Under the pieces are notes generated by a model. It ran no database searches. It saw only the letters and a program-made list of their open reading frames with translations, and had not been told where the DNA came from. From the NCBI GenBank assembly GCA_031316235.1, contig JALDRA010000001.1:2400001-2432000 (forward strand): a DNA stretch of 32,000 nucleotides. Direction: 5' to 3'. This document shows, in pieces, positions 3,981 to 29,571 of this stretch; positions within the stretch are counted from its first letter, which is position 1; each line of letters starts with the position of its first letter. The stretch comes from Candidatus Scalindua sp. GTDB lineage: Bacteria > Planctomycetota > Brocadiia > Brocadiales > Scalinduaceae. The position numbers and the translations under genes are program-made.

Positions 3981-4120
3981 TATACTAAAACCGATCTGGT
4001 TTTCGGTTTTACCGGCAACCAGATCCTGGTTAATGGTATCCCCGGACAAAAAGCGCCGAGGACTTTACTCGCTCAATTTTATCTCGGATTTTATCCGAAA
4101 ACCATTGGAAGGTGAGTATA
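3981..4120 (+). repeat. AT-rich structured MITE/REP-like element, full-length copy A (about 140 bp)
   Basis: Ends are tatactaaaaccg...gtgagtata. Internal hairpins are aaaaccga/tcggtttt, aaccag/ctggtt and tcggat/atccga. It matches the reverse complement of 19058-19195 almost base for base and shares ends with copies at 20640, 22028, 23820 and 29495. Confidence 0.8.
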
Positions 4121-5244: not shown

Positions 5245-5990
5245 GAGTCTTTTATATTGTAAAACAACCTGATATAGGTAAAGAGATTGATAATGCACTG
5301 GATGCCATTGAAAGGATTAATCCTTCACTGAAGGATGTTTTGCCGAAGGTCTATGCACGGCAGAATCTTGACCCAACAAATCTGGGTGGTTTAATTGACC
5401 TGGTTGGAAACATTGCCCTGGGAGATGCAAAGGCCAGAAGCGCAGATGTTCTGGGTCATGTATTTGAATATTTCCTTGGTGAATTTGCACTGGCAGAAGG
5501 TAAAACCAGGAACAGGGGGCACCTGATAAACCGCAGAACACGGAAACTGTCGGAGGAGGACATTATCTGCATATCTGAAACCTATCACAAGTGGAGGAGT
5601 GCACCCACCCCTGGCCCCTCCAGGGAGGGGAACATAATTGATGGCTCTTCCAGGGAGGGGGACATAATTTCTGGCCTGTCCCGTAAGGGGAGTATATCAG
5701 CTTCCGGGAAAAAGAAAAAATCTCTCCCCGGGGAGGGTGGCTCGGAGAGTCGGGAGGGGTACACAGACATTCCCGGTTTCTGTAACTCCGCATCGATTGA
5801 GAGGGTGAGGGAACTGGATTACGTGCTTACGCCGGGAAGATATGTTGGCCTGCCTGATGAAGAAGAAGAAGATTTTGATTTTAATGAACGGTTTACCACT
5901 TTGAAAAAAGAGTTTGAAGAGCAGTTGAAAGAGGAAGCGAGATTAAATGCACTGATTGCTGAGAATTTAAAAAAGGTGAAACTGTCATGA
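5245..5990 (+). pseudogene. hsdM: Type I R-M methylase subunit HsdM remnant: part of the N-terminal region joined directly to the C-terminal tail, with the AdoMet-MTase core missing
   Basis: KQPDIGKEIDNALDAIERINPSLKDVLPKVYAR...DVLGHVFEYFLGEFALAEGK matches the conserved HsdM N-region. It is followed at once by RNRGHLINRRTRKLSEEDI..TYHKWR...DIPGFCNSASIERVRELDYVLTPGRYVG, the HsdM C-terminus. The GGEFYTP and NPPF catalytic motifs are absent. The frame is open from 5163. Confidence 0.8.
5602..5759 (+). repeat. G-rich tandem-hairpin element, copy E1 (in frame inside the hsdM tail)
   Basis: It starts cacccacccctggcccctccagggagggg. Units of about 30-33 bp each carry a cccctcc/ggagggg palindrome. It lies between the conserved HsdM motifs TYHKWR and GYTDIPGFC and translates as PTPGPSREGNIIDGSSREGDIISGLSRKGS. 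Boundaries are approximate. Confidence 0.75.
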
Positions 5991-6360
5991 ATCATCCGCT
6001 GGCGAAAGAGAAGGATTATTCCGCATGGCTTAAGGAACTGAAAAATAAGGTTTGACTGGTTCAGATAAAAGCGGCTGTTAAAGTTAATACTGAGTTACTG
6101 CTGTTTTATTGGGAACTGGGGCGGCATATTGCAGATAAACAGAAGGATGCAAAGTGGTTTGAAGGTTTTCTGAAGCAATTAAGCATTGATTTAATGGTTG
6201 AATTTCCAGATATGAAGGATTTTTCTTTAAGCAATCTAAAATATATCAAACAGTGGTATACTTTATTAGAATTCGAAAATAGCCAACAAGCCCTTGCCTA
6301 TTTAACACAAATCCCGTGGGGACACAATATTGTCATCATATCAAAGTGTAAAAACCCCGA
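5987..6360 (+). pseudogene. DUF1016/YhcG-like nuclease, N-terminal fragment with an in-frame TGA, 3'-truncated
   Basis: MNHPLAKEKDYSAWLKELKNKV*LVQIKAAVKVNTELLLFYWELGRHIADKQ...LSIDLMVEFPDMKDFSLSNLKYIKQWY...IPWGHNIVII matches my recollection of the DUF1016 N-terminal pattern. The TGA is at 6053-6055. Homology stops at about 6360, where hsdM-tail sequence resumes in the same frame. Confidence 0.7.
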
Positions 6361-6859
6361 TGAAGACATTACCTGCATATCTGAAACTTACCACAAGTGG
6401 AGGTATGAACCCACCCTTAGCCCCTCCCAGGAGGGGAACATTACTTCTGGCTCCTTCCAGGTGGAGAACGTGTCTTCCTTCCCCTCCCAGGAGGGGAATA
6501 TATCTCTCCCTGGAAAGGGAAATAAGCCTCATACCGGGAAAAGGAAATGTTCCTGTCCAGGTAAGGGTGTGTTGGGGAGCCGAGAAAAGTCCCTCCCTTG
6601 GGAGGGTGGCTCGGAGAGACGGGAGGGGTGCACGGGTATAACGGGTTTTTGTAACTCTGTAACAATGGAAAAGGTAAGAGAACTGGATTACGTGCTTACG
6701 CCGGGAAGGTATGTTGGCCTGCCCGATGACGAAGATGATTTTGATTTTAATGAACGGTTTACCACTTTGAAAAAAGAGTTTGAAGAGCAGTTGAAAGAGG
6801 AAGCGAGGCTGAATAAACGTATTGATGAGAATTTGAAAAAAATTAAGATCAATGAATGA
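6361..6859 (+). pseudogene. hsdM: Second, paralogous copy of the HsdM C-terminal tail (5'-truncated), overlapping the hsdS start
   Basis: DITCISETYHKWR...GITGFCNSVTMEKVRELDYVLTPGRYVGLPDDEDDFDFNERFTTLKKEFEEQLKEEARLN aligns by eye with 5556-5990 in DNA and protein, apart from the inserted element. It ends in ATGAATGA, overlapping hsdS. Confidence 0.8.
6408..6628 (+). repeat. G-rich tandem-hairpin element, copy E2 (same site in the second hsdM tail, longer)
   Basis: It starts aacccacccttagcccctcccaggagggg and ends gagggtggctcggagagacgggagggg, the same right end as E1. It translates as PTLSPSQEGNITSGSFQVENVSSFPSQEGNISLPG. Boundaries are approximate. Confidence 0.75.
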
Positions 6860-7973
6860 GTGGAAAGAATTTTCAATTCTAGATTTCGCTGAAATACATA
6901 ATAATATCAGAGTTCCTCTCAGTAAAATGGAACGAATGAAAAGACAAGGTATTTTTCCTTATTACGGAGCATCTGGAATAATAGATCATGTTAATGATTT
7001 TTTGTTTGAAGGAGAGTTTGTTTTAATTTCAGAAGATGGTGAAAATTTGAGATCACGTCAAACACCAATTGCCTTTAAGGCAGATGGCTAATTTTGGGTT
7101 AATAATCATGCACATATTTTAAAAGGTAAAAAAAACTTTCACAATAACTTGCTAATTTATTACTTTCAGAATTTAGATCTAAATCCTTTTATCACTGGTG
7201 CCGTGCAGCCAAAACTTAATAAGGCTAATTTGCTTTCTATTCCAATATATCTACCTAAGGATGAAATCGAACAAAAAGCCATCGCCTCTATCCTTTCCAG
7301 TCTCGACGACAAAATAGACCTGCTCCACCGCCAGAACAAAACCCTCGAAGCTATAGCGGAAACACTCTTCAGGCAGTGGTTTGTAGAGGAAGCGGAAGAG
7401 GATTGGGAGGATGGTAAAATTCCAGATGAATTTGATTATGTAATGGGTGCCTCTCCACCAGAAGAAAGTTACAACGTGGAAGGAAAAGGTGTTCCAATGT
7501 TTCAAGGCAATGTTGATTTTGGATTTCGATTTCCTAAACAAAGGGTGTATACAAGAGACCCTAAGAGATTTGCCGAAAAATACGACACTCTTATTAGTGT
7601 TCGTGCTCCTGTAGGCGCTCAAAACATGGCTTATGTAAAATGTTGTATTGGCCGAGGGGTTGCTGCATTTAGATATAAACGCGAAGGTTCGTACTATACC
7701 TATACATATTTTAGATTAAAGTCTCTAATGGAGGAAATAAAGCAATTCAATGAGACAGGAACGGTTTTTGGTTCAATAAGCAAAGGGGATTTTGAAGTAT
7801 TTGAAATTGTTATTGCCCCAATAAACTTAGTCGATAAATTTCAAGCTGAAACAAAACCAATTGACGACAAGGTGATATCGAATTGTTTTCAAATTCTCAC
7901 GCTAGAAAAACTTAGAGATACTCTTTTACTGAAATTGATGAGTGGTGAAGTGAGAGTTGAATATGAAAATTGA
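6852..7973 (+). pseudogene. hsdS: Type I R-M specificity subunit HsdS with one in-frame TAA (7089-7091)
   Basis: ORFs 6852..7091 and 7149..7973 share one frame, and the only interruption is ...FKADG*FWVNNHAHILKG. Both target-recognition domains and the central and C-terminal conserved helices are present (LSSLDDKIDLLHRQNKTLEAIAETLFRQWFV, LEKLRDTLLLKLMSGEV). Confidence 0.85.
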
Positions 7974-9079
7974 TAATTATCAAAATGTAATTAGTTACTT
8001 AAATAAGAATAAAAGAGAAAAGCATCTCCTCCTTGGTAATGGATTTAGTATGTCTTATGATAAGAAAATATTTTCTTATAATGCTTTTAGTGACTTTATT
8101 AAAAAAACAGATAATCAATTACTACAAAAATTATTTGGCATTATAAATACTTGTAATTTCGAACTGATTATGAGCCAACTCGATGTTTTTTACCAACTTG
8201 CTGTTGAGTTTGTTGCGGATAAGGGTTTAGCAGATAAAATTACGATAGCTACGAAGTCTTTAAAAGAGAAGCTTGTTAATGCAATTTCCGAATTGCATCC
8301 TGAACAGGTTTTTAAAATACCAGCAGAACAGAGTCGCAACTGTGCTTTATTCCTTTCCAAATATGAAATGTATGGAAATTCAAAAGGGAAACGACTAATG
8401 GCTTTCTGGGAATTGGAAAGTAACCAGATAGTAGGAAAAATTATCAGTGAGTTAATTGAACATTGGCGGACTTCAAAAATGCTGTCCGATACTGAAATAA
8501 CAAAATCACAAGAAATACTTAGCAAAGATTGCCAAGTTATTGCTAACCGATTATTGGGGAGAATTCAAATTGAAACAGAAACTAATAAAAAAAGTGAAGA
8601 TGATTTCTTACAACGGAATTTTGAAAACGTCTCTTTAATAGGTTTAAATATTGAATGTGGATTAGTCAATGTTTTAGAGCAAAGAATATTTGAAATTCAA
8701 AAGAATCTTAAAAGTAGAGCTTCCCTTTCTGTTATCTTTTTATGTGGAAGTACGCTTGAAGGTATTCTCTTAGGTATCGCAACACGAAATCCAAAAAAGT
8801 TTAATCAAGCAACTGCCAGTCCGAAAGACAGAATATCAGGAAAAGTGATGAGCTTCCATGAGTGGTCATTACATAACATGATAAATGTTGCTTGCGAGGT
8901 TGGTCTTTTAGGATTAGACGTTAAGAAATTCAGTCATGCTTAGGGATTTTAGAAATTACATACATCCATATGAGCAATGGAGTTCAGGTTTTAATCCGGA
9001 TGAACATACCGCACTTATAAGTTGGCAAGTATTGAAAGCGGCCATTCATGATTTGAGTGGAAAGGGAGGCTGTGATTAA
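7957..9079 (+). pseudogene. Chimeric accessory gene: DUF4917-like N-terminus plus a HEPN-like C-terminus, with a +1 frameshift near 8938
   Basis: The N-terminus HLLLGNGFSMSYDKKIFSYNAF...CNFELIM...LKEKLVNAISELHPE resembles DUF4917 (from memory), but that family's later conserved core is missing. The ORF stops at 8943. The sequence continues in the +1 frame (8939-9079) as LRDFRNYIHPYEQWSSGFNPDEHTALISWQVLKAAIHDL, which carries an R-x(n)-H (RNxIHP) HEPN-type motif. Confidence 0.55.
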
Positions 9080-9177
9080 GAAAACAGAATATAGTCAATA
9101 GCAAATTAGCGTCCTCAAAAGACCACAGAATACTTTGTTGCCGAAATTGAAGGCCTGCAAGTGCTGGTTAAAAGAAT

Positions 9178-10158
9178 ATGGCTAAAGGGAAAAGAAACTT
9201 GTGGAGCGTGAAAAATGAACTCTTGATAAAATCAAGAGAGGCAATGCTTTGTGCAGTACAAATTTTCAACAATCCTAACATTGTCTTTAAATCAGAAAGT
9301 TTCATTGTTCTAGCAAATATTGCATGGACTTACTTGCTTCATTCTTATTATAAAAAAAGTGGTATTAACTATAGATACTACGAACAGAAGGCGCAGCGAA
9401 AAAGATATGATAAAACAAAAAGAGGGTCATTCAAATATTGGGAACTTGAAAGATGTTTGAATGATAAAAACTGTCCAATTGATAGTGTAACTATCTCCAA
9501 CTTGAAATTCCTTATAGGCCTTCGGCATGAGATTGTGCACCAAATGACAACTCGAATAGATGACTATCTGAGTGCTAGATTTCAGGCTTGCTGTTTAAAC
9601 TACAACAAATACGTTAAAAGACTCTTTGGTGAAGACTATGGTATTGACAAATACCTTTCTTTTTCTATTCAATTTTCATCAATTACGGAAGATCATGCGA
9701 AACAGCTGAAAGAATTTTCGGAATTACCCCAAAATATTGCTGCATATATAAATGATTTTGATAATTCAATATCGGAGGAGGTATTTAATAATCCACAATA
9801 TTCATACAGAGTTCTTTATGTTCCAAGGACAGCTAATAGAAAAGGGCAAGCTGATAAAGTAATAGAATTTATTCCTGCCGATTCGCCAGAGGCGCAGGGA
9901 TTAAACAAAGAGTATCGAATAATAAGGGATAGAGAGAAGCCAAAGCACTTGCCAACTGAAATAATTGATATAATGCGATCTAAGGGTTTTAAAAAATTCG
10001 GCATGCATCAGCACACCCAACTTTGGAAGCAATTTGATGCGAAAGATGAAGCCAAAGGATTTGGTGTCAGGGTTGCCAATGCTTGGTATTGGTATGATAA
10101 CTGGATAAAAGAAGTTGAAAAATATTGTGTGGAAAACAAAGAATTATATGTTGACTGA
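9178..10158 (+). CDS. Uncharacterised protein, DUF3644-like (family assignment from memory, unverified)
   Basis: Intact 326-aa ORF. The N-terminus LIKSREAMLCAVQIFNNPNIVFKSESFIVLANIAWTYLLHSYY...WELERCL...ISNLKFLIGLRHEIVHQ resembles DUF3644 proteins, which are frequent in R-M and defence loci. Confidence 0.5.
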   Translation: MAKGKRNLWSVKNELLIKSREAMLCAVQIFNNPNIVFKSESFIVLANIAWTYLLHSYYKKSGINYRYYEQKAQRKRYDKTKRGSFKYWELERCLNDKNCPIDSVTISNLKFLIGLRHEIVHQMTTRIDDYLSARFQACCLNYNKYVKRLFGEDYGIDKYLSFSIQFSSITEDHAKQLKEFSELPQNIAAYINDFDNSISEEVFNNPQYSYRVLYVPRTANRKGQADKVIEFIPADSPEAQGLNKEYRIIRDREKPKHLPTEIIDIMRSKGFKKFGMHQHTQLWKQFDAKDEAKGFGVRVANAWYWYDNWIKEVEKYCVENKELYVD

Positions 10159-10264
10159 AATCACAGAATCCGAAATAGAACAATTCGCAGTTGAATTACT
10201 CAAAAAATCAGGCTACAAACACATCTATGCCTTCAACCGCAGACTATATGGAAGCAAACGGTAA
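10151..10264 (+). pseudogene. hsdR: HsdR 5' stub (about 27 homologous codons followed by unrelated sequence and a stop)
   Basis: From the TTG at 10151, LTEITESEIEQFAVELLKKSGYKHIYA parallels the N-terminus of the hsdR at 11313 (MNKISENTIEEFTIELLEKSGYQYLFA). The start overlaps the stop of the preceding ORF (TTGACTGA), and the stub ends in TAATG at the rhuM start. Confidence 0.6.
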
Positions 10265-10736
10265 TGAATAAAAACAATCTTCCTGATAAACAATCAAATT
10301 TCTTTCTCTACACCGGAAACGACGGGAAAGTAAATATCGAAGTATTTATGCAAGATGAAACGGTTTGGCTGACGCAAAAGGCTATCGGCGAGCTTTTTGG
10401 AAAGTCAAAAGCAATAATTAGCGAGCATCTTAAGAAAATATATGCAGAAGGAGAATTGGAGATGGAGTCAACTGTACGGAAATTCCGAACAGTTCAAGCT
10501 GAAGGATCAAGGAAAGTAGAAAGAGGTTTGGAATTTTACAATCTCAACGCCATCATCTCGGTCGGCTATCGCGTAAACTCCTACCAGGCTACACAGCTTC
10601 GCATATGGATAACCAAACCCTGAAAGAATTCATCATCAAAGGAGTTGTTCTGGATGATGAACGACTCAAGCAGGGCAATCAGGTTTTTGGTAAAAACTAT
10701 TTTGACGAACTACTGGAGTGCATCCGGGAAATACGT
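10264..10736 (+). pseudogene. rhuM: RhuM-family protein, frameshifted (about 10617) and 3'-truncated
   Basis: FLYTGNDGKVNIEVFMQDETVWLTQKAIGELFGKSKAIISEHLKKIYAEGEL...YNLNAIISVGYRVNSYQATQLRIW is the RhuM signature. It continues in another frame as LKEFIIKGVVLDDERLKQG...YFDELLECIREIR, consistent with a 1-nt loss in aaa(a)ccctg. The rest of RhuM is missing. Confidence 0.75.
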
Positions 10737-10781
10737 GATCTCATATTGCCAAAACTGATGAGCAATGAGGCTGAAAATTGA
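10734..10781 (+). pseudogene. hsdS: Probable HsdS 3'-terminal tail fused to the rhuM remnant
   Basis: IRDLILPKLMSNEAEN* resembles the conserved HsdS C-terminus (compare LRDTLLLKLMSGEV at 7925-7966). The junction sits at a shared (I/L)RD. Confidence 0.45.
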
Positions 10782-11329
10782 CAAAACATAATCCAAAGAT
10801 ACACCATCGTCGGTCAATCAGATTAAAAGAATACGATTATTCACAGGAAGGGTTCTATTTTATTACGATATGCACGAATCACCATGTATGTTTATTCGGC
10901 AAAATATACGATGGTAAAATGGTATTGAATGATGCGGGAAAAATTGCAAAAGAATGTTGGTTGGATATCACGGAACATTATCCGAATACCAGATTGCATG
11001 AATGTGTGATTATGCCAAATCATGTACATGGAATACTACAAATTGTAAATAACACGGGGGTAGGGGTTCAAGATATTGAACCCCTACAACAACCCAAACA
11101 AAACCAATACCAGAAAATAATTCCGCGTTCAATCGGTTCCATGGTGCGGGGATTTAAAATTGGTGTGACAAAATGGTTTCGGAAAAATACAAACGTATAT
11201 ACGGTATGGCAACACAATTATTACGAACATATTATACGCAACGAACAATCATATTATAAAATTTCGGAATACATTATCAAGAATCCCTCTCATTGGCTAA
11301 CTGATAAATACTATGAACAAGATTTCTGA
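10778..11329 (+). mobile_element. REP-associated tyrosine transposase (RAYT; IS200/IS605 TnpA-like Y1/HUH enzyme), apparently intact
   Basis: 183-aa ORF with a TTG start. It has HHRRSIRLKEYDYSQEGFYFITICT, the HUH motif in MPNHVHGILQI, and the catalytic Tyr region WQHNYYEHIIRNE. There is no tnpB. It overlaps the hsdR ATG by 17 nt. Confidence 0.85.
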
Positions 11330-12204
11330 AAACACTATAGAAGAATTTACCATTGAGTTACTAGAAAAGTCTGGTTATCAGTACCTGTTTGCCCCTTTAA
11401 TCGCCCCAAACGGTAAAACACCTGAAAGAGAGTCATTTGAAGATGTACTGTTAATCGAACGTCTGCAAACAGCAGTTGGCAGGATTAACCCTGAAATCTC
11501 TGAGGATATCAGGGAAGATGCCATAAAACAGTTACTCAGGTTAAACTCTCCAGAGTTGATCGCCAACAACGAGGGCTTTCACCGTATGCTTACCGAAGGT
11601 ATAACGGTTAGTTACCAGAAAGACGGAAATGATCGTGGGGATTTAGTGTGGATGATTGACTTTAAAAATCCTGACAATAACGACTTTCTTGTTGTCAATC
11701 AGTTTACGGTTATCGAAAACAGTGTAAATAAACGTCCTGATATTGTTCTCTTTGTCAATGGCCTTCCATTGGTGGTTATCGAACTCAAGAATCCTGCCGA
11801 TGAGAACGCGACCGTAATATCCGCATTCAGGCAGTTTCAAACCTACAAGCAGGCAATCCCCTCCCTGTTTACCTACAATGGCTTTATGGTTATTTCAGAC
11901 GGCCTGGAGGCAAAGGCAGGTTCTCTTTCAGCTGGACTAAGCCGATTCATGGCGTGGAAGACAGCAGACGGCAAGGTTGAAGCGTCTCCCCTGATTGGCC
12001 AACTGGAAACACTCGTTAAGGGTATGCTGAATAAGAAGACACTGTTAGACCTAATACGCCATTTTATTGTATTTGAAAAGTCCAGAAAAGAGGACAAAGA
12101 GACCGGTATTATCACCATACAAACTGTGAAGAAGCTTGCTTACTATCATCAGTATTATGCTGTAAACAGGGCGGTAGAATCGACGATCAGGGCGGCGGGG
12201 TATG

Positions 12205-12399
12205 TACCCACCCCTGGCCCCTCCCAGGAGGGGAACATAATTCTTGGCCCCTCCAAGGAGAGGGGCATAATTTCCGGATCCTCCCAGGATGGGAATATAT
12301 CTCCTGGTTCGTTCCGGGTAAGCAAAGGAACAAAAAGCCAACTTCCAGGTAGTGGTGAAGTAATAAGTCCCCTCCAGGGAGGGGATACAGGGGTGGGTA
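12205..12399 (+). repeat. G-rich tandem-hairpin element, copy E3: 195 bp with perfect 12-bp terminal inverted repeats
   Basis: tacccacccctg (12205-12216) is the exact reverse complement of caggggtgggta (12388-12399). Sub-terminal hairpins are cccctcccaggagggg (12218-12233) and cccctccagggagggg (12369-12384). At 195 bp (65 codons) it reads through as PTPGPSQEGNIILGPSKERGIISGSSQDGNISPG. Confidence 0.85.
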
Positions 12400-12780
12400 G
12401 AAAAATCATCTCTTACAATCCAAAACTGAAGGAATTGGCAAAAAAGCTGAGAAAAAATATGACGCTTTCTGAGGTTCTGCTCTGGGATCAGTTAAAACAG
12501 AAGAAAATGCTCGGTTTTGATTTTGACCGACAAAGACCCATTGATGAATATATCGTTGATTTTTATTGTAAAGATTTAATGTTGGCAATTGAGATTGACG
12601 GTGAAAGTCATACCTGTGAAGAAGTTTATGAGAATGATGTTATAAGGCAGAAAAGACTCGAATCATTGGGTGTGCGTTTCTTACGTTTTCATGATCTGGA
12701 CGTAAAAAAGAATCTTAATGGTGTACTCAGGGTAATAGAACATTGGATCAAGAAACATCAAAATGATTTGGTGGGGAGAT
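12400..12780 (+). CDS. DUF559 (Vsr-like PD-(D/E)xK) endonuclease module embedded in frame in hsdR, with no start or stop codon of its own
   Basis: LAKKLRKNMTLSEVLLWDQLKQKKMLGFDFDRQRPIDEYIVDFYCKDLMLAIEIDGESH...DVIRQKRLESLGVRFLRFHDLDV...LRVIEHWI matches the DUF559 pattern (LR..T.aE..LW..L....l.g.kFrRQ.pi..yivDFyc....l.iElDG..H). It has no counterpart in HsdR proteins. Confidence 0.85.
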
Positions 12781-12950
12781 TACCCACCCCTTGCCCCTCC
12801 CGGGAGGGGAAACCCACCCCGGACCCCTCCAGGGAGGGGAACATAATTCATGGCTCTTCCAGGGAGGGGGACATAATTTCTGGTCCCACCGAGGAGGGGA
12901 ATATACCTTATCCTTTTGGGGAAGGGAGGAAGTCCCTCCCTGGGGAGGAG
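12781..12950 (+). repeat. G-rich tandem-hairpin element, copy E4 (left end duplicated, right end degenerate)
   Basis: It starts tacccaccccttgcccctcccgggagggg. A perfect 16-bp palindrome lies at 12794-12809, followed by a second left end, aacccaccccggacccctccagggagggg. The stretch 12824-12885 is nearly identical to 5609-5670 in E1. It translates as PTPCPSREGKPTPDPSREGNIIHGSSREGDIISG. The right boundary is approximate. Confidence 0.75.
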
Positions 12951-13923
12951 TCCGTAATGGAATCGCCTGCAAGCTATGGTTTACCGGGAGTCAAGGCGCA
13001 GCCTGTCGGTGACCGAAAGGGTGGTGTTGTATGGCATACGCAGGGGAGCGGGAAATCCCTGTCAATGGTTTTCTATACAGGAAAGATTGTTCTTGCTTTA
13101 GATAATCCCACCATTCTGGTTATTACTGACAGGAATGATCTGGACGACCAGTTATTTGATACCTTTGCGGCATCGAAACAGCTTCTCAGGCAAGAGCCTG
13201 TACAGGCAGAGGACAGAGAGCAATTGAAGGATCTTCTCAAAGTGGCATCGGGTGGTGTTGTCTTTACAACCATTCAGAAATTTCAACCTGAAGAAGGAAA
13301 TGTGTACGAGCAGCTCTCCGATAGAAAAAACATAATTGTCATAGTTGATGAGGCACATCGTACTCAGTACGGGTTTAAGGCCAAAACGATAGATGAAAAG
13401 GATGATAAAGGAAATGTAGTCGGCAAGAAAATTGTATACGGATTTGCGAAATATATGCGTGATGCCCTGCCAAACGCAACGTATCTTGGATTTACGGGTA
13501 CGCCGATAGAAAGCACAGATGTTAACACACCCGCTGTATTTGGTAATTATGTTGATATTTACGATATTTTACAGGCGGTAGATGACGGCGCAACCGTAAG
13601 GATTTTTTACGAAAGCAGGCTGGCGAAGATAAAGCTCAGTGAAGAGGGGAAAAAACTTATTGCGGATCTTGATGAAGTGCTTGAACATGATGAATTAACC
13701 CAGACCCAGAAGGCAAAAGCAAAGTGGACACAACTGGAAGCATTAATCGGCAGTGAAGACAGGGTTAAGCAGGTGGCGCAGGATATTATCACACATTTCG
13801 AGCTGAGGAATAATCCCGGAGGCGGGGGGCTTGATGGTAAGGCAATGGTTGTGGCCATGTCGCGCCGTATTGCTGCCGATTTGTATAAGGGAATCATTAA
13901 TATTCGACCACAATGGCACAGCT

Positions 13924-14310
13924 TTTTCTGATAGTGGAGGAAAGGGTGACCCTGCAATTGCCCAGGAAAAAGCTGTCAAAATGATGCTGGAAAAACTTGA
14001 AGTGGTTTCGCAGATGTTTCATGGATTTGCCTATGAAGATTATTTTCAGTCAGACACTTCAGCAAAGCTATCCCTTATTCTTGCTGCAGAAGAACATATT
14101 CTGGGAATGGACAACGGGAGAAAGAGATATATTGATGAAGTAACCGCTCTGCCTCAGGTCTTTTCCATAGCGATACCCCATGAACAGGCAATGGACGTAA
14201 AAGATGAATTATCATTCTTTCAGGCGGTTAAATCACGATTAGCAAAGTTTGACAGCACAGGTTCAGGCAGGACCGACGAGGAAATAGAGACAGTAATACC
14301 TTACGAATAA
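13924..14310 (+). pseudogene. hsdR: HsdR C-terminal-domain fragment (different frame, 3'-truncated)
   Basis: SGGKGDPAIAQEKAVKMMLEKLEVVSQMFHGFAYEDYF...LILAAEEHILGMDNGRKRYIDEVTAL...ELSFFQAVKSRLAKF matches the region downstream of the HsdR helicase (DUF3387-type). The first roughly 30 codons of ORF 13831..14310 are an out-of-frame overlap, not homologous sequence. Confidence 0.7.
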
Positions 14311-15664: not shown

Positions 15665-15729
15665 ACGATAACTACCCACCTGCTGCGTTGCGGTAATAAT
15701 TCCGTAGTCCTCACGTACTTGAGTACGTT

Positions 15730-15761
15730 CCGGTTCCGAAAACCATTATGAGATGAGTATA
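15730..15761 (+). repeat. AT-rich MITE family, right-end fragment (copy B)
   Basis: ccggttccgaaaaccattatgagatgagtata matches the right ends of copies A, E and H. It lies just downstream of ribD. Confidence 0.6.
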
Positions 15762-17141: not shown

Positions 17142-18062
17142 TTAACAAATTTCTTCAAGCCGTTTCTTCGCCGGCCGAACCCTCGAAAGTTCTTGATCTT
17201 TCTTCACCACCAGTTTCTTTTTCCGATACAGTAACTTTTCAAATAGTAAATTTGTTTTAGTGGGTAAGTTTTGACTCTCTGCCCTCAGATATCGTGCTCC
17301 CATACGACAATAATCGGGATCTATTTCGACACCAATGCTGTTTCTTCCGTACCTCAAGGCAGCAACCATACTGGTTCCCGAGCCGCAAAACGGATCAAGC
17401 ACTGTATCGTCAACAAATGAAAACATGCGTGTCAATCTCGATGCCAGCTCCAGAGGGTACGGAGCCGGATGTTTTTTTAAAGATGATCCGGGGATGTTCC
17501 AGATCTGCTGAAACCATCGGTCAAAGTCTTTCTTATTGATCATACTCTCCTGGCGCTGCTGCGCCGTTGGTTTCCTGTAGCCACCCGGTTTTCGCTGCAT
17601 GAGGATGAACTCTATATCATTCTTGATAATAGCGTTCGGTTCATAGGGTTTCCCGAGAAATTTTGAGCCGTTGGCTACCTCATATGAGGCATTGGCTATC
17701 TTGTACCATATTATGGGATTGAGATTGTCAAACCCTATTTTCCGGCACAGGACACAAATATCTGCATGAAGCGGAAAAACGAGATGCCTGCCGAATTTCC
17801 TTCGAGATACGCAAACATCACCGACGACACAAACCAGACGCCCACCGGGAACCAAAACACGAAACACGTGTTCCCAGACGAGTTTTATTTCCATGAGAAA
17901 TTTTTCGTAATCTTCTATATGCCCCAGCTGATCAGGATTTTCGTTGTATTTTTTAAGATTCCAGTACGGCGGAGAGGTAATTACGAGATGGACAGACTCA
18001 TCGGGAATGAATGATAAGTCTCTCGCGTCTCCGTTAACCAGCCTGTGGGTAGTTTCACTCAT
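17142..18062 (-). CDS. Type II DNA methyltransferase, beta class (N4-C or N6-A; PF01555-like)
   Basis: Motif IV (TSPPYW) lies N-terminal to motif I (LDPFCGSGTS), which is the beta-class circular permutation. The start codon overlaps the stop of the upstream endonuclease gene by 1 nt (TAATG on the minus strand). Confidence 0.85.
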   Translation of the reverse strand: MSETTHRLVNGDARDLSFIPDESVHLVITSPPYWNLKKYNENPDQLGHIEDYEKFLMEIKLVWEHVFRVLVPGGRLVCVVGDVCVSRRKFGRHLVFPLHADICVLCRKIGFDNLNPIIWYKIANASYEVANGSKFLGKPYEPNAIIKNDIEFILMQRKPGGYRKPTAQQRQESMINKKDFDRWFQQIWNIPGSSLKKHPAPYPLELASRLTRMFSFVDDTVLDPFCGSGTSMVAALRYGRNSIGVEIDPDYCRMGARYLRAESQNLPTKTNLLFEKLLYRKKKLVVKKDQELSRVRPAKKRLEEIC

Positions 18063-18796
18063 TACGAAATAAATCCTCCAACATGCGCTACGAGGATATG
18101 TGAAAAATTTTCGACAGACAGCTCATCGAGAGGTGTGGCAAATACCCCCTGAGGTCCATTATCCCGGTCTGAAGTAATGAAAGCAGATGCGGTGTAGTGT
18201 CTCTCCAGGACAAGTTTTCTGCAAAAAATTTCATAGCGTTTCATGTAGGATGCACCTTTGAATTCTGGAAATACTGAAAAATGAGGTTCTTTAACACGGA
18301 CAGGTTTTTGTGAAGAGGCACAATCTTCGAGCATGAAAAAATATCCGAGAAAGGGCTGAGGACTTGTATGGAATGCACCTTCACGGTAGGCAGTCCATAA
18401 GTCGATGGCGCTTCCCATTGCTTCCTCGGTCCGGTTATTGAAATTGTTGCCAAATGAGGGTCCAACCTGCGACTTGGCTTCGATTGCGGCGATGAGTTTT
18501 CCATCCTTCACCACAAGAAGATCCCACTCCTTTGTCGGGCGGAAGAAACCGGGCAGTTCAAGAGAGCCCTTCCTCTGGACCAGTTTGATGTCCAATCCTG
18601 TTGACACAATAAGCCGGGTAAAGAGTTCTACAAAACCGTCCATCTGTGCACCACCAGTTACCGCACTTCGAAGGCCAGCGTCAGCACGTCCGCTCTGCTG
18701 TTGTCTGCGCTGCTGAAAAAGCCTTGTTTCCCAGTAGTGCGAAACAGCGGCCCCAATCATTTCTTGTAAATTTTCTGGTAAACCAAACTTATTCAT
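18062..18796 (-). CDS. Type II restriction endonuclease, XhoI/PaeR7I-like (family assignment from memory)
   Basis: 244-aa ORF with SAVTGGAQMDGF...ELPGFFRPTKEWDLLVV...IEAKSQVGPSFGNNFNNRTEEAMGSAIDLWTAYREGAF, which I recall as the XhoI-family core. It is translationally coupled to the MTase. Confidence 0.65.
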   Translation of the reverse strand: MNKFGLPENLQEMIGAAVSHYWETRLFQQRRQQQSGRADAGLRSAVTGGAQMDGFVELFTRLIVSTGLDIKLVQRKGSLELPGFFRPTKEWDLLVVKDGKLIAAIEAKSQVGPSFGNNFNNRTEEAMGSAIDLWTAYREGAFHTSPQPFLGYFFMLEDCASSQKPVRVKEPHFSVFPEFKGASYMKRYEIFCRKLVLERHYTASAFITSDRDNGPQGVFATPLDELSVENFSHILVAHVGGFIS

Positions 18797-18859: not shown

Positions 18860-18895
18860 TATGCTAAAACCGAAAACCAAACCGGTTTCAGTATA
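18860..18895. repeat. AT-rich MITE family, minimal hairpin copy C
   Basis: tatgctaaaaccgaaaaccaaaccggtttcagtata is an imperfect version of the palindromic core seen at 23835-23874. Confidence 0.55.
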
Positions 18896-19033
18896 GCTAC
18901 TTTTGTGAATTAATTCGCTGCATGATCGAATTTTAGCTCCTCTATTCCCGTATGTCAATTAAATAGGTTGTGGTTGAACGTAAACTATCCATTTCATGCG
19001 CTGATGTTATCATTTCTTTTGAGTTTTAGATTT

Positions 19034-19195
19034 TTCCAAAAACCATTATAAGATAAGTATACTCATCTCATACTGGATTTCGGATACAATCCGAGATAAA
19101 ATTGAGCGGGTAAAGTCCTCGGCGCTTTTTGTCCGGGGATACCTTCACCAGGATTTAGTTTCCGGTAAAACCGAAAACCAAATCGGTAGTAAATA
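19034..19195 (-). repeat. AT-rich MITE, full-length copy D (19058-19195, reverse orientation) abutted head-to-head by a 28-bp right-end fragment (19034-19061)
   Basis: 19058-19195 is the reverse complement of copy A with few differences. The segment aaccattataagataagtata immediately before it is a plus-oriented right end that shares the central tata. Confidence 0.8.
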
Positions 19196-19409
19196 TCAGG
19201 ATAATTTTCAAGGGAAACGGGGCTATTCCCTCCATGCCCTGACTTTTATGTCCCCGTGTAAAGCAATCCTGAGGGCTTGAATTGTTTGCAGCGTATTAAG
19301 TGGTTATTTTATTTAGAAGTAGCTTTGTGGGCTGAATTATTATATACTGAACCCCTGGTTTTTGAGCCTTTTGACAAATTTGATACAAAAAAAGAAAGAT
19401 AAAGAAGAG

Positions 19410-20639: not shown

Positions 20640-20750
20640 TATACTAAAACCGATCTGGTTTTCGGTTTTACTCGAAACCAGATCCTGGTTGCTGGCACAC
20701 TCCATCCGTTTTTTCCCGGTTTTACCGAAAACCATTTTAAGATGAGTATA
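20640..20750 (+). repeat. AT-rich MITE, short variant, copy E (about 111 bp)
   Basis: tatactaaaaccgatctggttttcggtttta...ccgaaaaccattttaagatgagtata. The left 50 bp are nearly identical to copy A. The middle matches copy H. Confidence 0.8.
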
Positions 20751-21995: not shown

Positions 21996-22027
21996 AATTC
22001 TATCTCCTTTCACTATTTTGAACAAAT

Positions 22028-22084
22028 TATACTCATCTCATACTGGATTTCTGATTAAATCCGAGAAAAAACAGAGTGAGTATT
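22028..22084 (-). repeat. AT-rich MITE family, truncated copy F
   Basis: tatactcatctcatactggatttctgattaaatccgagaaaaaacagagtgagtat aligns with the first 60 bp of copy D. Confidence 0.65.
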
Positions 22085-23819: not shown

Positions 23820-23889
23820 ATACCCATCTTACACGTTATACTAAAACCGAAAACCAAATCGGTTTTAGTATAACGTGTAAGATGGGTAT
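23820..23889. repeat. Perfect palindrome (31-bp arms, 8-nt loop) built on the AT-rich MITE core, copy G; possible rluA terminator
   Basis: atacccatcttacacgttatactaaaaccga (23820-23850), loop aaaccaaa, then tcggttttagtataacgtgtaagatgggtat (23859-23889). I checked base by base that the arms are exact reverse complements. Confidence 0.85.
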
Positions 23890-28720: not shown

Positions 28721-29104
28721 TTAATAACGGCTCTCTCCTCTTTGTGGCGTCTGTCGTTCTATCCTTTGGTATTTTTCCCTATTCTGTGGTTCTGTCCTTT
28801 GGTATTTATCCTTATATGGTTCCTGTTTCTTTTCGGGGGAGGTATATTTATCTGGGTGCTCCCTATACTCGTTTGCACATTCTTCACAACACAGCCTTAT
28901 ACTGTTACCGTCTTCTTCAACTTCAACAGGCTTCCCCATACTGTCAACGGCCTTTCCACAAACCTTACAGGTATCAACAGACTCCTCTGAAGCAGAGGCC
29001 TGCTTAATACCGAAGCAACTGTTGACAGATGAAATATTACCCTCATAAGGATACATAAGCACAAAAGCACCAGCAAGAGCACTTACTATATATCCAATAC
29101 GCAT
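28721..29104 (-). CDS. Small secreted Cys-rich protein with a YHS/TRASH-like metal-binding motif
   Basis: Signal peptide MRIGYIVSALAGAFVLMY, then CKVCGKAVDSMGKPVEVEEDGNSIRLCCEECANEYREHPDKY (C-x2-C...C-x3-C). The basic tail has an imperfect KYQR(T/I)E repeat. Confidence 0.6.
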   Translation of the reverse strand: MRIGYIVSALAGAFVLMYPYEGNISSVNSCFGIKQASASEESVDTCKVCGKAVDSMGKPVEVEEDGNSIRLCCEECANEYREHPDKYTSPEKKQEPYKDKYQRTEPQNREKYQRIERQTPQRGESRY

Positions 29105-29494
29105 AATAATTTAACTCCTTTCAGAAAATCCTTAAATACAATTATAATAAAGTACTTATATTATAATTGCTACCGATAGGGTTTACCAAACAAAAACCGC
29201 TACCGTATTTCTATCACACAAAGACTAATCCCCGATAAATCTGCAAAGTCCTCAACCGGCCGGCTACCGTCATATTCACTCTCCAATATTGGTTTCGTAT
29301 TGTTATAAATCATCAGTAACGTCCGGTTAGGAATTTGCACGTGCGGCTTTTGTAATACCCGAGTGCTTTTATCGGGTATCCAGAGAGTCTCATTCATCCT
29401 GGATTCCCGCTAAAAACATGCGGGAATGACATCTTTTGAGCAATAAATTAAATACGCAAAAACCTAACCGGACACTACTGGATTTTTCTAAAAA

Positions 29495-29571
29495 CCAAAG
29501 CCTGGTTGCTGCTATACGCACTCCATTTTTTTTCCGGAGTATTATCCGAAAACCATTATAAGATGAGTATA
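29495..29571 (+). repeat. AT-rich MITE family, 5'-truncated short variant, copy H
   Basis: ctaaaaaccaaagcctggttgctgctatacgcactccattttttttccggagtattatccgaaaaccattataagatgagtata aligns with the right two-thirds of copy E. Confidence 0.7.

Follow-up and report, generated by a model that had tools for sequence, protein, structure and literature searches.

Four GC-rich hairpin elements, E1 to E4, lie within the remains of a type I restriction–modification (R-M) locus in a 32,000-nt stretch of a metagenome-assembled Candidatus Scalindua genome (assembly GCA_031316235.1, contig JALDRA010000001.1; this whole stretch is hereafter the window). All four belong to a family of palindromic repeats that we find in at least ten phyla. 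The unit formed by E3 and E4, assigned in the initial annotation to one composite, encloses a complete DUF559 endonuclease that was overlooked there and that is the constant partner of the family. On balance, we think that the family is probably a selfish one, resembling MITEs (miniature transposable elements with inverted repeats) or the hairpin-forming doublets (REPINs) of repetitive extragenic palindromes (REPs), which is combined with a homing-type nuclease and persists, within genes, only where a loop tolerates it.

The left end of every window element is a 34-nt module, ACCCACCCC-TAA-CCCCTCCnnGGAGGGG-AATAT, made up of a box (ACCCACCCC), a 3-nt linker, a hairpin (CCCCTCC-nn-GGAGGGG) and a closing AA(C/T)AT. 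The consensus of 55 copies with a direct box, (A)ACCCACCCC-TAA-CCCCTCC-nA-GGAGGGG-AATAT, is nearly invariant. Among the matches listed, the upstream box accompanies 99 of 125 hairpins, and in some taxa a variable additional stem-loop stands between the two. Complete elements consist of two inverted modules around a variable core, which in the window is built of 30-nt hairpin units. Over the family as a whole, elements measure 100–330 bp, with internal tandem hairpin units of 27–42 nt, and many copies form inverted doublets whose boxes lie on the outside (L020, L046, L081, L086, L063 and E3). The G-rich strand of the module carries four G-tracts (GGG-A-GGGG-TTA-GGGG-T-GGG), and thus could form a G-quadruplex.

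Within the window, a repeat alignment joins 5553-5698, 6359-6504, 12156-12301 and 12762-12907 in one direct-repeat family (D1), and the hairpin core CCCTCCMRGGAGGGG, with at most 2 mismatches allowed, has 19 matches against 0.16 expected, all of them inside E1 to E4; the 32-kb window has no further copies of box or hairpin outside these four. A 30-nt (10-codon) tandem period is present in each element according to Tandem Repeats Finder, and element length ranges from 158 to 221 bp. All four are on the + strand, and the enclosing open reading frames (ORFs) read them in one relative frame as PT(P/L)xPSxEG(N/K) with zero stops, the host-frame peptides being PTPGPSREGN.., PTLSPSQEGN.., PTPGPSQEGN.. 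and PTPCPSREGK... The sites, the common orientation and frame, and the lack of stops are therefore as first annotated, and so is the observation that none of the four is intergenic, while the copies of an unrelated AT-rich MITE-like family in the window all are. E3 has kept both of its ends, two copies of the module in inverted orientation (33 nt at 12206-12238 and 30 nt at 12369-12398). Through these ends, its single-stranded DNA folds into one long hairpin (dG -48.2 kcal/mol; z -5.7; equalled by 0 of 200 shuffles). The right ends of E1, E2 and E4 are degenerate or truncated, and the fold of E1 is no better than that of shuffled sequence (z 0.14), which is consistent with its decayed right end.

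The initial annotation saw in this arrangement a possible analogue of Rickettsia palindromic elements (RPEs), that is, a family specialised for coding sequence that preserves the reading frame and targets loops of R-M proteins. In its strict form this has, in our judgement, very little probability, even though the four window copies lie in ORFs in a single frame and orientation, and R-M genes recur as hosts elsewhere (HsdM in L019, L035 and L115, a DNA methyltransferase in L044), with the HsdM and HsdR loops as hot spots. Per element, 3–4 of the 6 frames are free of stops, compared with 0.15–0.20 per frame in random window segments of equal length, and GC content is 0.54–0.61 against about 0.43 for the window. 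Open frames, and with them the lack of stops, thus follow from base composition. Because the elements are GC-rich and intrinsically stop-poor, they also give rise to spurious overlapping and antisense ORFs (12051-12341 and 12155-12409 on the - strand, 6330-6641 on the + strand), as had been recognised for the antisense frames. The window contains at most two independent insertion events, both ancient, which agrees with a caveat already attached to the proposal; with so few events, and with half or more of the frames open, a shared frame and orientation is statistically unremarkable.

Sampling across genomes argues against coding specialisation more directly. An exact-pattern scan with one genome per species returned at least 120 loci in at least ten phyla, from which we took the boxed copies that have 300 nt or more of flanking sequence and asked whether a frame stays open on each side for 70 codons or more. 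Among the matches listed, 10 of 86 such copies (upper bound 21; 12–24%) lie in long ORFs, compared with about 85–90% at random placement. The 10 use four frames (S0 in 4, S1 in 3, antisense A2 in 2 and S2 in 1), and the copies in the anammox relatives Brocadiaceae and Loosdrechtia are intergenic. The family is thus under-represented in coding sequence and favours no frame, and the expected preservation of frame and coding beyond chance is not what we observe. Copies mostly outside genes or in assorted frames had been named as the outcome that would refute a coding-specific reading, and this is the picture at the level of the family in our cross-genome sample. What stands of the RPE analogy is the insertion of in-frame loops that intact relatives tolerate (HsdM of L035, about 20 of 101 HsdM and 38 of 95 HsdR).

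The hosts include Cyanobacteriota (Moorena, Okeania and Crocosphaera), Bacteroidota (Pontibacter, Chitinophaga and others), Planctomycetota (Scalindua, Brocadiaceae and Loosdrechtia) and, further afield, Verrucomicrobiota, Hydrogenedentota, Calditrichota, Bacillota and others. Copies in frame are found in a Calditrichota DNA methyltransferase, a Chamaesiphon isoleucyl-tRNA synthetase (IleRS), the linker of an Oscillospiraceae MutL, QueG and cyanobacterial AAA-WD40 proteins. A metagenome scan for the window-type unit CCCCTCCnnGGAGGGGAACATAATT gave 0 matches, and one for a two-unit pattern with the 30-nt period gave 1 irrelevant, eukaryote-like match. In the Chamaesiphon case (L074, a metagenome-assembled genome), the essential IleRS carries the module in frame (SEPTPSPSKEGN) around residue 898, followed by some 150–200 additional residues with hydrophobic, transmembrane-like stretches before the IleRS sequence resumes, so that the passenger far exceeds the repeat. 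In Moorena and Okeania (L002, L010, L015, L024, L026, L027, L039, L050 and others), the module sits within arrays of GGGGAGA/GGGGAAT-type heptamers, usually on both sides.

The DUF559 domain that E3 and E4 bracket is complete and supplies, in frame, HsdR residues 363-489. The conserved motif IVDFYC...IEIDG..H is present, and identity to free-standing proteins some 125 aa long reaches 79%. Its subfamily is large (more than 6000 matches at E <1e-10) and occurs in Bacteroidota, Desulfonatronum, Calditrichia and others; no relatives were found in viral contigs. Housekeeping genes aside, DUF559 is, among the matches listed, the sole ORF family found repeatedly within 2 kb of the motif in different genomes, and it occurs at 5–6 of 120 module loci. 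We examined 13 DUF559 genes, namely the window gene, those of 5 genome loci, L122, and 6 tail-less homologues that were picked only for being short and on long contigs. A box-hairpin module follows the stop codon in 12 of the 13, at a distance of 0–80 nt in 11, and several of the stop codons lie near or within the box linker, while in the window the module continues in frame. Upstream, an inverted hairpin-box precedes the start codon by about 3–80 nt in 10–12 of the 13 genes, and the flanks are often complete doublets.

The same association can be read from annotated proteins. Many DUF559 homologues end in module-encoded tails (NPPPTPPRRG, EPSPDPSKEGN, KPTPGPSQEGN), and other database entries start with FPSWEGxGVG. 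The repeat peptides that flank a second DUF559 subfamily (A-sub2) differ from these, as seen at the protein level, and a third subfamily, inserted at HsdR site B (see below), has at the DNA level the box CCCTCCCTC and other hairpins. That each subfamily has repeats of its own suggests co-variation of nuclease and repeat. In a published screen, coding sequences with a DUF559 domain were 14-fold enriched among those overlapped by inverted repeats (PMC9881135); in the literature on DUF559 that we consulted we found no description of repeat flanks or of insertion in HsdR. In the Bacteroidota loci L123, L127 and L130 the free-standing DUF559 cassette lies directly downstream of the gene for 2-oxoacid dehydrogenase E2, and in 2 of these 3 genomes just upstream of recG, while in L128 (Calditrichia) it lies between chorismate-binding (trpE/pabB-type) and glutamine amidotransferase genes, beside an unannotated 251-aa ORF. 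Such recurrent positions hint at preferred intergenic landing sites.

Within the R-M proteins, the insert positions first given, between TYHxWR and GFC of HsdM and just upstream of motif I of HsdR, are correct. The HsdM loop has 10 aa in its canonical form, which 82 of 101 relatives have, and 59 aa (between TYHKWR and GFC) and 80 aa in the two window copies. About 20 relatives have it expanded, always at the same junction, by in-frame GC-rich repeat peptides of at least five repeat families. By alignment, the insertion falls between residues 497 and 505 of PDB 3khk. In the window HsdR, 288 aa separate the YYAVN helix from motif I (GSGKS), compared with a modal 49–50 aa; this site, site A, corresponds to EcoR124I residues 267-300. 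Of 95 HsdR relatives with both landmarks, 27 carry DUF559 with repeats at site A, 11 have the third DUF559 subfamily some 40 aa further upstream, at site B, and 57 carry neither. Insert-bearing HsdR proteins that were retrieved in full have 1213–1405 aa, and uninterrupted forms 1077 aa.

On a neighbour-joining tree of 546 backbone columns, site-A, site-B and uninterrupted alleles are intermixed at 87–89% backbone identity. The window protein and P0122 (both site A) are sisters of the uninterrupted P0129 and P0130 (88%) and of P0125 (site B, 89%), P0123 (site A) is sister to module-only alleles, of which Kuenenia HsdR provides examples, and sister pairs exist that have different DUF559 subfamilies at one site. 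Such a pattern of presence, absence and replacement is what homing endonuclease genes are expected to show. In an AlphaFold model of the 872-aa window ORF, DUF559 is folded confidently (predicted local distance difference test score, pLDDT, 84–92), and the segments encoded by E3 and E4 are unstructured (pLDDT 24–31; residues 297-368 for E3 and 492-560 for E4 all below 50). We used this model only for the contrast of a folded DUF559 with disordered flanks and not for placement of the insert. A junction peptide of P0137 reads AAGYVPTPYPSQEGNIVSNPSQEGCIVESPESYGVPGVISQPIGDR. Since the HsdR backbone is 65–87% identical across phyla, it is itself highly mobile; R-M genes are in addition dispensable and heavily sampled, and these properties may bear on why they are favoured as hosts.

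Repeat copy number and repeat identity both vary in these proteins. In P0126, a JGI HsdR of 1405 aa, the element 3' of DUF559 has grown to more than 12 tandem 14-aa (42-nt) units (SQEGNLTFQEGDTA), and because the protein is otherwise intact, expansion of unit number in frame within coding sequence is evidently possible. In P0128 and P0162 (Chitinophagales-type HsdR), another family, (F)PSSGGVxExRGG, is found in frame at at least three separate places, and it also occupies the HsdM loops of P0323, P0341 and P0354, which indicates that multiple palindromic families colonise the same R-M proteins.

The inserts could instead be adaptive parts of these enzymes, the repeat peptides being selected as flexible linkers and DUF559 as an accessory nuclease, both inherited with the genes and without current DNA mobility. 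Many full-length HsdR proteins do keep DUF559 in frame, the embedded subfamily-1 domain has lost the initiator Met, and the domain is well conserved (79% to free-standing relatives) and confidently folded. We nonetheless assign this explanation a low probability, as the conserved entity is the DNA palindrome and not the peptide, occurring in at least four frames, in both orientations and mostly in intergenic copies. Moreover, free-standing DUF559 genes between housekeeping genes bear the same module flanks, the backbone tree mixes insertion states that involve two sites and three DUF559 subfamilies, and unit number varies widely, up to the more than 12 tandem units of P0126. An intein was also considered and was rejected. 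Inteins have a Hint (splicing) domain with Cys or Ser at its N terminus and His-Asn plus a nucleophile at its C terminus. No Hint domain is present here, Pfam finds only HSDR_N, DUF559, SWI2/SNF2, ResIII and DEAD in the 872-aa ORF, and the HsdR insert begins with YVPTPGP and ends with GEESV.

A different enzyme lies near the elements in the window, and under a REP/REPIN interpretation it would have mobilised the hairpins, with DUF559 as a bystander. The ORF at 10778-11329 on the + strand matches the REP-associated tyrosine transposase (RAYT, a Y1/HUH enzyme) model NF047646 with an E value of 2.5e-13 and has HxH and YxxH motifs (NHVHGIL, NYYEH), although its 50 bits are under the curated cutoff of 80. 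A 47%-identical RAYT-like homologue adjoins hsdM in Ca. Scalindua SCAELEC01 (L035, 7305-7874), and the elements, like REPINs, are short palindromes that often form inverted doublets. The hallmark of RAYT genes is that they are flanked by REPs, yet there are no modules in the flanks of either RAYT-like gene, and among the matches listed none of the other 119 module loci contains a RAYT homologue; it is DUF559 that modules flank, in the 12 of 13 cases described above. Nor does the module consensus have a GTAG or CGTC tag, and one module sequence extends across at least ten phyla, unlike REPs, which are lineage-specific. For want of module flanks, of the tag and of RAYT genes at the other module loci listed, we reject RAYT as the main explanation and hold an origin of this kind to be unlikely. 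The window RAYT-like ORF lies immediately upstream of hsdR and overlaps its start by 17 nt.

It is harder still to credit that the module is a regulatory motif or structured RNA (for instance a terminator, a small RNA or a hairpin that stabilises mRNA) which happens to occur in ORFs. Its hairpin is strong, the variable extra stem-loop of some taxa resembles covariation, and E3 folds far better than its shuffles. Copies nevertheless point either way relative to genes, form inverted doublets or lie inside ORFs; they have no T-run, and the tight pairing with a nuclease gene fits a role at the DNA level. Searches of Rfam with the window (at gathering thresholds), with 5400-13200 (at relaxed E values) and with eight module-bearing loci returned only generic hairpin (miRNA) noise, and a described RNA family is excluded on this basis.

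Returning to a selfish family with a homing-type nuclease, we envisage E1 to E4 as copies of a palindromic family that would have spread horizontally. Solo and doublet copies would be its non-autonomous, MITE/REPIN-like derivatives, and the DUF559 cassette its nuclease-bearing form, spreading by a homing-type process. The data above show membership of the family, its architecture, the association with DUF559, carriage in frame by intact relatives and the mixing of insert-bearing and insert-free alleles among close relatives. We infer that DUF559 is the mobilising enzyme, which would recognise the modules and cleave at or near a module or target site, whereupon repair would copy the cassette-bearing template. 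Insertion could then take place anywhere, and intragenic copies would survive where they leave an open frame, have a length that is a multiple of three and fall in a tolerant surface loop, where they would be translated as disordered linkers rich in Pro, Ser, Gly and Glu. Two regions of a highly mobile type I R-M family are recurrent landing sites, namely the TYHxWR–GFC loop of HsdM and the part of HsdR just before motor motif I. In Scalindua, the inserts are old, as other anammox bacteria share them, and the R-M system decayed around them later.

Several points weigh against this proposal. Among the matches listed, 114–115 of 120 module loci have no DUF559 within 8 kb, and the survey of copies is a cross-genome sample rather than a census of the source genome. 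The list of HsdR relatives is biased to DUF559-bearing proteins by a query that itself contained DUF559, and the AlphaFold model is poor outside DUF559 (mean pLDDT 53.6). The box is outermost in free doublets and innermost around DUF559, and the DUF559 gene may simply sit between two elements. The embedded window DUF559 has no start codon of its own, as in embedded subfamily-1 copies generally, while free-standing copies begin with M(P/K/R)RKI; a start-less domain could be a domesticated one and not an active selfish gene. A PD-(D/E)XK nuclease by itself is no transposase, and we know of no activity for this DUF559 subfamily. Neither a target-site duplication, nor a DNA-level pair of empty and filled sites, nor recent identical copies were demonstrated for the family, and the ends of doublets show no consistent direct duplication.

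Comparison with known systems brings out what is particular to the combination. In function the window copies are RPE-like; in organisation the family is close to REPIN–RAYT systems, with another class of enzyme. RPEs are short in-frame palindromic selfish repeats that add tolerated surface peptides and have no known transposase (PMC10969869); they measure about 100–150 bp and make up sequence families 1–10. The present family shares with them in-frame palindromic insertion that leaves the host protein intact (HsdM of L035, full-length HsdR), but its host is a planctomycete and no kinship in sequence is expected, so that the relationship is one of analogy. RPEs are restricted to Rickettsia, with some families predominantly intragenic, whereas this family extends over at least ten phyla, is mostly intergenic, uses several frames and has a constant gene partner in DUF559. 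Bacterial MITEs such as Correia/NEMIS, ERIC and Nezha are likewise small, multicopy elements with terminal inverted repeats that are mostly intergenic and form occasional in-frame fusions (PMC10969869). Here, no cognate insertion sequence or transposase is seen to share the ends, DUF559 being the only gene that does, no consistent target-site duplication is seen at doublet ends, and the interior consists of tandem 27–42-nt hairpin units.

In REPtrons, a palindrome-bracketed gene for a small enzyme is accompanied by hundreds of non-autonomous copies (PMC3116915, PMC3337134). The REP/REPIN–RAYT system resembles ours in its 20–40-nt palindromes, single or as inverted doublets, in its hundreds of non-autonomous copies and in the inverted repeats that bracket a small enzyme gene, but the gene bracketed here encodes a PD-(D/E)XK/Vsr-like nuclease and not a Y1 HUH transposase. 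REPs are defined by a GTAG or CGTC tetranucleotide at one palindrome end (PMC3733652), and in our family this is absent, the repeat is conserved across phyla, and in-frame intragenic copies are common.

Homing elements provide the other half of the comparison, and the in-frame nuclease cassette is most like two of them, the ShiLan insertion and the EDxHD/Vsr-like homing endonucleases. The ShiLan domain is an in-frame, non-splicing homing insertion with an HNH nuclease in actinophage DNA methylases (PMC11855218). Shared features are a stop-free insertion in the host frame of a modification or restriction gene, the carriage of an endonuclease without intein or intron features, a homing-like phylogenetic pattern and a predicted looping-out from the host protein. 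The HNH gene of ShiLan is out of frame and has no described repeat flanks, whereas here DUF559 shares the host frame and lies between multicopy palindromic modules, which also occur by themselves. One member of the Vsr/DUF559 clan is the EDxHD homing endonuclease I-Bth0305I (PMC3424549, PMC9403480); nuclease clan and insertion in conserved genes are common to that system and ours. I-Bth0305I-type enzymes ride in self-splicing introns or inteins, whereas the present inserts have no Hint or intron features and would stay in the mature protein. As for homing endonuclease genes generally, the nuclease is present or absent at a precise HsdR site in backbones that are 87–89% identical.

There is a substantial chance that the pairing of DUF559 with the modules is a genuinely undescribed class of mobile element. 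A fuller formulation, which we advance only tentatively and regard as rather doubtful in all its parts together, is that DUF559 and its cognate inverted box-hairpin modules are an undescribed cross-phylum class with a REPtron-like organisation in which a Vsr-like homing nuclease replaces the transposase; its modules would serve both as DNA ends for recombination or recognition and as disordered Pro/Ser/Gly linkers, allowing the cassette to invade coding sequence in frame without intron or intein.

The means by which RPEs, Correia elements, many MITEs and other short palindromic repeats move have long been in question, since most of these repeats, to our knowledge, have no identified enzyme. 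A widespread repeat with a constant, tiny partner gene offers a candidate enzyme–substrate pair that is directly testable. It also reveals how selfish DNA, even a whole nuclease domain, can enter proteins without splicing, and HsdR provides a natural allele series (uninterrupted, module-only, and module with DUF559) at two sites of one highly conserved backbone. DUF559 is among the commonest "endonuclease domain-containing" annotations. The repeats create spurious ORFs, odd low-complexity tails and inflated "fusion" annotations (HsdR/very-short-patch-repair endonuclease), and annotation would improve once the module is recognised.

The four copies were first described as lying inside coding sequence, and they do lie within ORFs, but these ORFs are decayed relics or pseudogenes of hsdM and hsdR (Table 1). 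In the first hsdM relic, aa 97-178 (in the numbering of an intact orthologue, as for the second relic), the end of the N-terminal domain, are joined straight to aa 405-555, the catalytic core being deleted, and Pfam matches positions 276-310 of N6_Mtase only; the protein of its 216-aa ORF and P0250 (MRK01_10120 by locus tag, from Ca. Scalindua sp.) are identical. The second relic is fused downstream of a DUF1016_N fragment, and the same E2-bearing duplicated fragment is found in Ca. Scalindua SCAELEC01 (L035, 4633-5100). The 872-aa hsdR ORF is 100% identical to P0121 from Ca. Scalindua. By tblastn with the uninterrupted P0129, the window hsdR is without aa 632-726 and 870-1081, its T1RH-like_C domain ends at position 122 of 329, and the hsdS of the window is partial. 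In SCAELEC01, an intact 556-aa HsdM has an E1-type element in frame, and a Brocadiaceae HsdR, 84% identical to that of the window, has the same E3–DUF559–E4 arrangement. Since they are shared with these proteins, the inserts are older than the R-M decay. A protein search with the E4 peptide gave 9 weak matches, mostly to unrelated repeat proteins.

Table 1. Features of the window, with positions counted from its first nucleotide
Feature	Position	Strand	Description
hsdM relic 1	5259..5990	+	found by tblastn with the intact L035 HsdM; ORF called 5340-5990
E1	5602..5759	+	box-hairpin module followed by 30-nt hairpin units; closing hairpin and box are degenerate
hsdM relic 2	6362..6859	+	C-terminal piece, aa 422-555, duplicated; within ORF 6194-6859
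E2	6408..6628	+	longer paralogue of E1, giving the 80-aa loop; hairpins at 6422 and at 6482 are both good
hsdR pseudogene	11313..14310	+	HSDR_N, insert, SWI2/SNF2 motor, frameshift at about 13900, truncated T1RH-like_C (Pfam)
E3	12206..12398	+	complete element; terminal inverted modules around 30-nt units
DUF559 (Vsr-like PD-(D/E)XK) endonuclease	12399..12779	+	Pfam PF04480, E 3.4e-29; PDB 3hrl, E 3.1e-12
E4	12781..12950	+	two tandem box-hairpin modules, 30-nt units, truncated closing hairpin
AT-rich MITE-like copies	3981-4120, 15709-15761, 18860-19196, 20640-20750, 22012-22082, 23820-23889, 29483-29571		

The dead R-M island is a patchwork. A fragment of a DUF1016_N (YhcG-like nuclease) gene with an in-frame stop lies at 5990-6360 between the two hsdM relics, and DUF4917, DUF3644 and a truncated RhuM ORF, at 7957-10623, separate hsdR from the hsdS fragment. 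The window also encodes, at a distance of a few kb from this decayed locus, a type II R-M pair that looks intact (17142-18796 on the - strand), consisting of an XhoI-family endonuclease (PF04555, E 3e-101) and an N6_N4 methyltransferase.

The AT-rich MITE-like family is unrelated to the hairpin elements and occupies seven intergenic gaps of the window, often as composite or nested copies. Its ends are TATACTAAAACCGA... and ...GATGAGTATA, and inverted matches between copies are 31–86 nt long; the copy at 23820-23889 is a perfect 31-nt palindrome. Two tandem 33-nt units at 28750-28815, which are 87% identical, are likewise unrelated to the hairpin family.

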